From an uncultured Gammaproteobacteria bacterium (GTDB taxonomy: Bacteria > Patescibacteriota > Microgenomatia > UBA1406 > GWC2-37-13): a DNA stretch of 56,001 nt. Positions 37,234 to 54,932 of the stretch are shown here, in pieces. The notes below the pieces were generated by a model. It made no database searches. It was not told where the DNA came from and saw only the letters and a list, made by a program, of their open reading frames with translations. The DNA lies in contig CAZNUT010000001.1 of assembly GCA_964576365.1 (NCBI GenBank), positions 1-56,001 on the forward strand, given 5' to 3'. The number at the start of each line of letters is the position of its first letter. The first letter of the stretch is position 1. The position numbers and the translations under genes are program-made.

Positions 37234-37311
37234 CAAGTTCGTCAAGTTATAAAATTCGTAAAGTTGTTGTTTAATCTATGGCTAATTTCCAAGCAACGAT
37301 TTCTAATTTCT

Positions 37312-37425
37312 GTGCGAAATAGGTGGCACGAATAGAGGGTTCCCGACAGCGCGCAGAATTTTTCCAGCCTGCCGCTGGTTCGAGCACTGACGGGATGACA
37401 ATGAGTGACAGAATCTATTTCGCAC
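37312..37425 (+). repeat. GC-rich palindromic repeat, copy A
   Basis: Outer 11-bp perfect stem gtgcgaaatag/ctatttcgcac. Inner cccgacag/ctgacggg and ccagc/gctgg stems. The 27-nt core cagcgcgcagaatttttccagcctgcc is identical to copy B. Confidence 0.85.
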
Positions 37426-37454
37426 GTAATATGACTAACACTTTTACCTTTTCA

Positions 37455-37473
37455 CCTGCCTGCGGCAGGCAGG
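37455..37473. other. perfect 9-bp GC-rich palindrome cctgcctgc-g-gcaggcagg
   Basis: Lies 11 nt downstream of the minus-strand SDR stop codon. No U-tract follows on either strand. Confidence 0.5.
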
Positions 37474-37483
37474 CTCTTCACTT

Positions 37484-39230: not shown

Positions 39231-39279
39231 AATATCGAATATCTAATGTTTAAAGTCTAAAGTCAAATGTCTAATCACC
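39231..39279 (+). repeat. tandem degenerate heptamer array (AAWNTCN x7)
   Basis: aatatcg aatatct aatgttt aaagtct aaagtca aatgtct aatcacc, in exact 7-nt phase. It contains the ATG at 39267. Confidence 0.85.
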
Positions 39280-40412
39280 GGCAGACGTCACGAGTAGAAG
39301 GTCAGAGGCAGCGCGCAGAATTTTTCCAGCCTGCCACTGGTACGAGCACTGGCGGGACAACCACGAGTGACAGAAGCTGCCTGAGTAATAAAAAAGTCAG
39401 TATTGTGATTGTCAACTGGAATGGTTTGCATCACCTAAAAACACTACTTCCCTCACTCAGCCTACTGACATACCCCGCGCTTGAAATCATCATTGTGGAC
39501 AACGCATCAACAGATACATCGGTCCAATATATCCGAGTCAATCATCCTCTCATTCGCGTGATCGTGAACCAGCAAAACGAAGGATTTGCAAATGGAAATA
39601 ATATTGGCGTCAGACAAGCAACAGGGGAGTATGTACTTCTCCTCAACAACGACACACGAATCGTTCAACATGATCTCATAGAACATCTATTGCGCATTTT
39701 TCAACAGTCAAAAAATATAGGTATAGCTCAACCCAAAATTCTACGCATGAATTATCCAAACACTCTTGATTCTGTAGGTGCATACTATACTCGAACAGGT
39801 TTTTTGTATCATTTTGGATATCTTCAACATGATAGTGAACAATTTAATACATCAGTCCCTCTGTACACTGCAAAAGGTGCGTGTATCTTGATTAAAAAAA
39901 GTCTCATTGACCAAATTGGATTATTTGATTCAGATTACTTTGCTTATTTTGAGGAAACTGACTTTTGTCATCGGACGTGGCTTGCCGGTTACGAAGTATG
40001 GTATGAGCCAGGGGCAAAAATCGAACATCACATAGGTGGCACCTCTAATGCTATGGATAATGCATACGTACAATTTCACTCATTCAAAAACCGAATTCAC
40101 TCATATATCAAAAATCTAAGTGTTTGGGAATTGATTTTCCTCTTACCCACACATATTGCTTTGTGCATATGTGCTGCTGTGCTGTTTTTTTTAAAACAAA
40201 AACCACTGACGGGTATTGCCATACTAAAAGCAATTGTATGGAATATCATTAAGCTGCCTAAAACGTTACAAACTCGACAGCACATTCAAAACAAAATAAG
40301 AAAAAAATCAGATGCCGAATTTTTGCCAGCATTAACAAAAGCACCCCGCATAACATACTATATTGCCCTATTTGGAAACAGATTAGACCAATATAAAGAA
40401 GCTTGTCCCTGA
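39267..40412 (+). CDS. family 2 glycosyltransferase with C-terminal TM helices; N-terminal 38 codons are a repeat element
   Basis: VSIVIVNWNGLHHL...IIIVDNASTDTS...LLLNNDT. The only in-frame ATG is 39267. The canonical-looking N-terminus (x)SNKKVSIVIV begins at the CTG at 39381. Confidence 0.8.
   Translation: MSNHRQTSRVEGQRQRAEFFQPATGTSTGGTTTSDRSCLSNKKVSIVIVNWNGLHHLKTLLPSLSLLTYPALEIIIVDNASTDTSVQYIRVNHPLIRVIVNQQNEGFANGNNIGVRQATGEYVLLLNNDTRIVQHDLIEHLLRIFQQSKNIGIAQPKILRMNYPNTLDSVGAYYTRTGFLYHFGYLQHDSEQFNTSVPLYTAKGACILIKKSLIDQIGLFDSDYFAYFEETDFCHRTWLAGYEVWYEPGAKIEHHIGGTSNAMDNAYVQFHSFKNRIHSYIKNLSVWELIFLLPTHIALCICAAVLFFLKQKPLTGIAILKAIVWNIIKLPKTLQTRQHIQNKIRKKSDAEFLPALTKAPRITYYIALFGNRLDQYKEACP
39278..39381 (+). 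repeat. GC-rich palindromic repeat, copy B (inside annotated GT2 ORF)
   Basis: Termini ccggcag...ctgcc. The 27-nt core at 39309-39335 is identical to 37347-37373. The shared 3' arm is gagcactgRcggga..a..gagtgacagaa. Confidence 0.85.
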
Positions 40413-54836: not shown

Positions 54837-54932
54837 CCGGCAGGTGTCACGAGTGGAGGGTTCCCGACAGCGCGCAACGAACGAAGTGAAGAGAGCACTG
54901 ACGGGAGGACAACGAGTGACAGAATCTGCCGG
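54837..54932 (+). repeat. GC-rich palindromic repeat, copy C
   Basis: Perfect 7-bp termini ccggcag/ctgccgg. It shares gtcacgagt.gagggttcccgacagcgcgca and agcactgacggga.gacaa.gagtgacagaatct with copy A, but has a different central segment. Confidence 0.85.

Follow-up and report, generated by a model that had tools for sequence, protein, structure and literature searches.

Rickettsia palindromic elements (RPEs) are repeats of 105–150 bp with frequent in-frame fusions (PMC10969869), and no enzyme that mobilises them is known (PMC10969869; PMC3184786). ERIC (enterobacterial repetitive intergenic consensus) is an imperfect palindrome of ~127 bp, and in bcr1 of Bacillus cereus base-pair compensatory changes preserve the fold at the RNA level; both are listed as intergenic repeats (PMC3184786), and intragenic ERIC copies are known as well (PMC10969869). 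In bacteria of the candidate phyla radiation (CPR), which make up a large uncultured share of bacterial diversity and have tiny genomes, repeat families are almost undescribed.

Here we examine three related sequences, copies A, B and C, in a 56,001-nt stretch of DNA (the window) together with their relatives elsewhere. We put at about one half the probability that they belong to a non-autonomous, structured palindromic repeat family of CPR (Patescibacteria/Microgenomates-type) bacteria, similar in type to RPE, ERIC and bcr1.

Results

Three copies in the window

A preliminary description had reported three GC-rich copies of about 100 nt, all on the + strand, and region reading, alignment and covariance model agree on them (Table 1). 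Their GC content of 53–61%, against 39.3% for the whole window, is far above that of the surroundings, as had been described. The limits first proposed for A and C stand, whereas those of B (39278–39381) are better replaced by the ones in Table 1. Copy A lies between two minus-strand genes and is antisense to both, copy B, in sense orientation, follows codon 3 of a gene for a GT2 glycosyltransferase and keeps its frame, and copy C sits between convergent genes with a P1 stem (CACCGGCAG) identical to that of copy B. Alignment verified the 27-nt core of A and B, the 21-nt string of A and C, and the 3' half (GAGCACTGRCGGGA..GAGTGACAGAA), which is nearly identical in all three; the 5' part that they have in common reads ..GTG[G/T]CACGA..AGGG..CCCGACAGCGCGCA. 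The 14-mer GAGCACTGRCGGGA occurs three times for 0.24 expected, a count reached in none of 100 shuffles.

Table 1. Positions of the three copies and associated features in the window, and parts of the fold common to the family.
Feature	Position	Strand	Description
Copy A	37312–37425	+	complete element; covariance model 101.2 bits; MFE -43.5 kcal/mol, z -3.9
Copy A, P1 5' arm GTGCGAAATAG	37312–37322	+	partner is 37415–37425
Copy A, P1 3' arm CTATTTCGCAC	37415–37425	+	
Copy A, P3 5' arm CCCGACAG	37342–37349	+	pairs with CTGACGGG at 37387–37394; one A.A mismatch
Copy A, apical P4 hairpin CCAGC-CTGCC-GCTGG	37364–37378	+	
TAAT flanking copy A	37304–37307 and 37427–37430		
Terminator-like GC hairpin with T-rich tail	37458–37474	+	33 nt 3' of copy A
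Host GT2 ORF with copy B	39267–40412	+	381 aa
Copy B	39276–39385	+	degenerate element; covariance model 72.1 bits
TAAT flanking copy B	39272–39275 and 39386–39389		
Copy C	54837–54932	+	complete element; covariance model 89 bits; MFE -39.1 kcal/mol, z -4.5
P1			outermost stem, 5 to ~17 bp; conserved part only inner YAG-RT/AT-CTR
Bulge			AGA, 3' side, between P1 and P2
P2			TGKCAC/GTGACA
Tandem G.A			between P2 and P2b
P2b			GTAA/TTAC, GCAA/TTGC, GTGT/ACAC or ATGTT/AACAT
Internal loop			AGGGYA facing GRAAA; conserved
P3			CCCGACAG/CTGGCGGG
Loop between P3 and P4			GCGCGCA...GAGCA; conserved
P4			variable; tip GCC-NNNN-GGC in one subgroup; purine-rich loop instead in copy C

The identity among the three copies is a mosaic: A and B have the same P4, B and C the same P1, and A and C a common P3 arm. 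This bears out the idea of a modular element, in which copies of one genome exchange modules. The outer stems measure 11 bp in A and 7 bp in C, as first stated, with 6 of 7 bp in B, and their sequence does differ between copies while remaining complementary. A covariance model built from 16 copies was run over the window and returned the three copies with E-values of 1e-18 to 1e-26; since the next best match scores 12 bits, the window holds exactly three. The folds of A and C far surpass those of shuffled sequences. Copy B is degenerate: another sequence has taken the place of the P3 5' arm, and for this reason its fold stays at the level of shuffled sequences (z -0.45).

The window consists almost entirely of one glycan-biosynthesis cluster with at least ten GT2 and two GT4 glycosyltransferases, three DegT aminotransferases, epimerases/dehydratases, several methyltransferases, MBOAT and AlgX, a flippase-like protein, PMT_2 and a 1135-aa DUF5667 protein. 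Among its ~50 ORFs there is no transposase, RAYT, reverse transcriptase or integrase, so that within the window the search for a cognate enzyme, suggested in the preliminary description for the genome, came back empty, and the window contains no cassette array. An AT-rich hexamer upstream of each copy is not supported as a promoter: no sigma-70-like site precedes A, B or C, and the relatives have no upstream motif in common. A terminator-like hairpin follows copy A (Table 1); the genes flanking it are both on the minus strand, and it could end a + strand transcript containing copy A.

TAAT flanks are found at copies A and B only (Table 1). They may reflect a target preference or a duplication, and they count for little because direct repeats give no family-wide signal: the longest repeat in the flanks has a mean length of 3.65 nt, no more than in permuted controls (3.69 nt), and no target-site duplication is common to the family. 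The outer P1 arms differ between copies and only the inner 3–5 bp are conserved, which leaves the family with no conserved terminal inverted repeats.

A single hairpin with covarying stems

All copies fit a single rod-like hairpin with variable stems (P1, P2b and P4) and conserved purine-rich internal loops (Table 1). Over 21 copies, 94.8% of cells are paired, compared with 76.5% in column shuffles and 27–46% when partners are slid, and in 20 of 31 pairs both partners vary, the observed values being reached by none of 500 shuffles; these figures lean slightly towards structure because the alignment had been fitted to the model. However, the same helices came out of RNAalifold when it was run independently on a MAFFT alignment. 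Compensatory changes among copies are therefore abundant: stem sequences vary freely provided that pairing holds, and the purine-rich loops are conserved. Divergent copies have an uninterrupted helix (UCCUUC/GAAGGA or GGAGAUUC/GAAUCUCC) in place of P2, the G.A pairs and P2b.

Relatives in L004, L011, L013, L016, L020 and L021 form a subgroup with a 5-bp P1 and a 5' end reading GGAG-N3-ATGGCACGAG, then ATCTGGAGA. Several of its copies hold an open mini-ORF, MARVKGxRxRA...GEITSDRIW, which is interrupted by stops in others. A small conserved ORF (MARVKG...), with GGAG-N3-ATG in a subgroup, was considered and rejected, the frame being broken in many copies and stem changes leading to non-conservative residues, and the mini-ORF of this subgroup is probably not coding. 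Known RNA cores (ykkC, T-box, hairpin, hammerhead and twister), compared by eye, do not fit the element either, in agreement with Rfam 15, which has no match at gathering score anywhere in the window and, at E<=10, nothing on the element for A, B or six canonical relatives.

Several observations bear on which strand folds. The helices contain 27 G:U against 3 A:C pairs (14 against 3 when one conserved G:U position is left out), and the + strand is the better folder in 14 of 20 copies, by 1.9 kcal/mol on average (Wilcoxon p=0.012), including 3 of 4 copies lying antisense inside host ORFs. The + strand is therefore the folding strand, and it is on this strand that the conserved unpaired bases are purine-rich; what folds is thus either RNA of this strand or single-stranded DNA. 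Each 4-kb bin of the window has a negative GC skew (-0.03 to -0.15), which gives the folding strand of A, B and C a lagging-strand composition.

Relatives outside the window

A pattern scan of a genome collection found one copy, in a Candidatus Roizmanbacteria MAG. This single match underestimates the distribution because the pattern was too strict: it demanded CGGGA, where most relatives have CGGGG. The metagenome pattern scan returned 20 loci, of which 19 proved genuine, with about a dozen different sequences among them, and orthologues of host genes led to further copies (L023, L024, L026 and L027). With ~20 distinct relatives outside the window, in the Roizmanbacteria genome and in metagenome contigs, the three copies are not a local duplication. 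Copies measure 85–130 nt, with three per 56 kb in the window. Two patterns gave no match in viral contigs, and a literature search for the element sequence and for repeats of CPR bacteria brought nothing relevant. A protein search with concatenated six-frame translations gave one match and is too insensitive for a census.

Proteins of the window were found in just two public contigs, L002 and L028. The former (Logan SRR8893623, 1833 nt) carries the epimerase gene of the window and ends inside copy A, at the core common to copies A and B, which is consistent with a short-read assembly break at a repeat. Another contig, L020, holds two copies on the same strand ~830 nt apart (1–91 and 916–1045, both on the - strand), with ~60 nt of similar upstream flank in common; the second has an additional hairpin within its 3' internal loop. 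At the orthologous lemA/M48-peptidase spacer, L024 has a family member (1970–2075), and L023 has a different GC-rich palindrome (1977–2074) with an AT-rich outer stem (CCTATTTTAGC...GCTAAAAATATGG). The latter is not recognised by the covariance model and could represent either a second repeat family or a copy that has diverged strongly.

Insertion sites and their history

At 16 independent sites the element is in sense orientation to the host or upstream gene in 9 cases and antisense in 7. The neighbours (proS, ddl/murF, a SAM-hydroxide adenosyltransferase gene, glycosyltransferases, lemA/M48 peptidase and an NHL-repeat protein) are functionally unrelated, and there is neither an association with a gene nor a rule of orientation. 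Five sites lie inside ORFs (asnB, two in tgt, a membrane-protein ORF and the GT2 gene of the window); the host frame is open in all five, and three of the copies are antisense to the host gene. At the first tgt site, 34 residues stand where Z. mobilis TGT has 5, and the site is empty in a relative with 84% identity, for a net gain of 84 nt or 28 codons; tgt has a second in-frame site as well. The asnB site is empty in a 73%-identical relative, and relatives at 55–60% carry related in-frame inserts, while the membrane-protein ORF has an in-frame copy that is also present in its orthologue. GT2 homologues (335–350 aa) first align with the host of copy B at query residue 40–44, which corresponds to their residue 1–9, and removal of 39276–39389 (114 nt, 38 codons) restores the N-terminus MSNKKVSIVIVNWNG.

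Stop-free frames make up 46 of 114 reading frames of the element (~40%), so one open frame is unremarkable; that five of five are open, and kept in orthologues, nevertheless points to selection on the survivors. The copies inside ORFs use at least three different frames and both orientations, with no single conserved peptide or frame, and the ATG frame contains stops in several copies. Intron-like excision was also considered and rejected, three of the ORF sites being antisense to the host gene, yet the fold being specific to the + strand. Homologous TGTs of the Microgenomates type (P0122–P0141) have two hypervariable loops (columns 340–390 and 200–240 of the TGT alignment) with inserts of many lengths. 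In some of these proteins peptides derived from the element (LRAVGSPGISAT, LPLR) can still be recognised, a sign that insertion may have been repeated or ancient, with later decay.

Conservation is far higher in orthologous copies than in the sequence around them, which the preferred reading does not explain. In the ORF copies of L009 and L026, the core is 95% identical and the P1 arms are identical, for 68.5% identity of the flanking CDS, and P4 keeps its pairing at 69% identity. In the intergenic copies of L004 and L017, the cores are 76% and 92% identical, compared with 47–48% for the spacers and 41% for third codon positions; here P4 pairs at only 40% identity. The neutral decay expected of a dead insert is not seen, so either gene conversion among copies or a function in place has to be considered, and the mosaic of A, B and C is evidence for a refreshing of copies by gene conversion. 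Furthermore, where a filled site could be compared with an empty relative (two sites), 7 of 9 and 6 of 8 outer bases of one P1 arm agree with the native host sequence, and the other arm is complementary to this one, so that one arm looks derived from the host. Copies B and C, on the other hand, have the same GC-rich P1 within unrelated AT-rich flanks.

Discussion

Dispersal with no association to genes, either orientation, in-frame insertions, filled and empty sites, genome-specific mosaic subfamilies and a probable assembly break are what lead us to place A, B and C beside RPE-, ERIC- and bcr1-type repeats. The preliminary description had favoured a dispersed REP/MITE/RPE-like element or a small RNA over a cis-regulatory leader, and this is supported by the near balance of sense and antisense sites; an RPE-like element in particular is indicated by the combination of in-frame insertions into ORFs and sites left empty in close relatives. 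Two of the outcomes that the preliminary description had named as refuting it, an absence of further copies and an absence of compensatory changes, do not hold. On the best reading the family itself is new, having no match in Rfam 15 and being seen for the first time in CPR bacteria, although RPE-, ERIC- and bcr1-type repeats as such are already known. A trans-acting factor encoded outside the window would use the conserved loops to recognise the folded single strand and would copy or move the whole hairpin, the ends of the element being set by structure and not by fixed terminal sequences. The mobile unit would then be "whatever is paired", which would cover host-derived P1 arms and the P1 common to B and C alike. 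Insertions into ORFs would survive only when in frame and stop-free, and the survivors would be translated as a loop of ~30–40 residues.

Some results go against such a repeat family. The ~50 ORFs of the window include no mobilising enzyme, the family has neither conserved terminal inverted repeats nor a common target duplication, and no recent, identical copies were seen among those collected. We infer mobility from presence/absence patterns only, and loss could partly account for these. A host-derived P1 arm is not predicted by the copy-and-paste of a fixed unit, and orthologous copies are conserved beyond what a dead selfish insert should show. These last two observations keep alive the reading of the element as a functional RNA or ribozyme.

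It is doubtful, but conceivable, that the copies are genes of a functional structured RNA family (a trans-acting sRNA, an RNP component or a new self-cleaving ribozyme class) duplicated round the genome, in which the purine-rich loops would be a putative active or protein-binding core and the stems a scaffold. The covariation with invariant loops resembles that of functional RNAs, the unpaired purines are conserved on the + strand only, with the G:U bias and the better folding on the same side, and orthologous sites are strongly conserved against saturated flanks; such a family would be new, given that no Rfam family matches it. The terminator-like hairpin 33 nt downstream of copy A on the + strand, which no gene on that strand requires, could also be understood in this way. 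However, five independent sites inside ORFs with open host frames, three of them antisense, would be odd for RNA genes, sites are present or absent among close relatives, and there is no promoter-like site, no common upstream motif and no consistent terminator. The tandem G.A and P2/P2b can be replaced wholesale and P4 is lost in copy C, and this too counts against such a reading.

Unlikely too is a combination of both ideas, namely a new class of functional structured RNA in CPR bacteria, perhaps a small ribozyme or the partner of a protein, that would itself be mobile and whose ends would be set by the base of the hairpin and not by sequence. This would explain why the loops are so strongly conserved at orthologous sites and why host flanks are drawn into the outer stem.

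The dispersed palindromic repeat that we prefer has a variant in which RNA would play no role: single-stranded DNA would be the active form, and the + strand hairpin a site for an HUH/Y1 enzyme (IS200/IS605-TnpA or RAYT-like) or a structure-specific recombinase, as with REP/REPIN and integron attC sites. We regard this as rather improbable. While folding is specific to one strand whatever the direction of the host gene, terminal sequences vary as expected where structure is recognised, and the copies of multi-copy loci are co-oriented (3/3 in the window and 2/2 in L020, for a chance probability of ~0.125), an element of ~100 nt with several conserved loops is unlike a REP (~35 nt, GTAG) or an attC site (R''/R' boxes), and no Y1 or integrase gene lies nearby. 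Moreover, the negative GC skew across the window gives the folding strand lagging-strand composition, which differs from that of the exposed template of the lagging strand.

A cis-acting mRNA element, whether a 3'-UTR stabiliser, a processing site, a terminator or a leader/riboswitch of the flanking glycosyltransferase genes, appears very unlikely. It would suit the seven intergenic sites located downstream of a gene on the same strand, often between convergent genes, and ERIC-type repeats have known effects on the stability of mRNAs (PMC3184786), but 7 of the 16 sites are antisense to their neighbours, some are inside ORFs, the neighbouring genes are functionally unrelated, and there is neither a U-tract nor a match to an Rfam riboswitch. 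Finally, a local segmental duplication or chance palindrome of no wider significance, which the presence of three copies within 18 kb might suggest, is already refuted by relatives in unrelated contigs and in at least one named CPR genome, and both the E-values of the model (1e-18 to 1e-26) and the unrelated flanks speak against it.

The family matters for several reasons. It puts 30–40 residues into conserved enzymes such as TGT and AsnB and thus affects protein annotation, and it may explain part of the unusual insertions in CPR proteins. It can break short-read assemblies, and the covariance model is usable for annotating such repeat sites. Furthermore, because its structure is unusually well conserved, a new RNA or ssDNA-protein recognition system may lie behind it, or else a new mechanism of mobilisation.

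Comparison with known systems

Several described systems can be set aside. A classical MITE is not supported, as the outer P1 arms differ, no IS is found in the window and there is no target duplication of fixed length (3.65 vs 3.69 nt). REP/REPIN-RAYT systems are similar in that they are strand-specific hairpin repeats thought to be recognised as folded single strands, but REPs measure ~35 nt, have a conserved 5' GTAG and are extragenic, whereas the CPR family measures ~100 nt, has GTAG in 1 of 20 copies and is also found in ORFs; the search for a RAYT or Y1 transposase gene covered the 56,001-nt window and found none there. The attC sites of integrons are imperfect palindromes of 57–141 nt in which the fold of one DNA strand is functional and the stems are little conserved, as in the CPR family. 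However, this family conserves its internal loops and not its ends, the R''/R' boxes (RYYYAAC/GTTRRRY) are present in 0 of 20 copies, and the window has neither a cassette array nor an integrase. In yeast mitochondria, GC clusters and 'byp' elements are GC-rich palindromic mobile inserts in AT-rich genomes, also inside protein-coding genes. They are ~30–60 nt long and are not known to have a conserved multi-loop architecture, and byps are bypassed by the ribosome; the CPR family is longer and multi-looped, and its host frames stay open.

ERIC and bcr1 come closer, being imperfect palindromes of ~127–155 bp found in either orientation (PMC3184786). Compensatory changes that keep the single-strand fold are common to bcr1 and the CPR family (20 of 31 pairs). 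ERIC and bcr1 end in terminal inverted repeats and are flanked by direct repeats of TA or 5 bp, whereas in the CPR family the termini are variable and no flank repeat is consistent, and five of its sites lie in frame inside ORFs.

Closest in behaviour are the RPEs: the CPR family, too, is a palindromic repeat of ~100–150 bp in multiple dispersed copies that forms translational fusions by frequent in-frame insertion into unrelated housekeeping ORFs. CPR genomes are small, so that both families reside in small genomes. The host phyla are unrelated, and the likeness is one of behaviour. RPEs encode one conserved peptide, whereas the CPR family uses at least three reading frames in both orientations, and to the RPE-like traits it adds documented covariation of its stems and conservation in situ.
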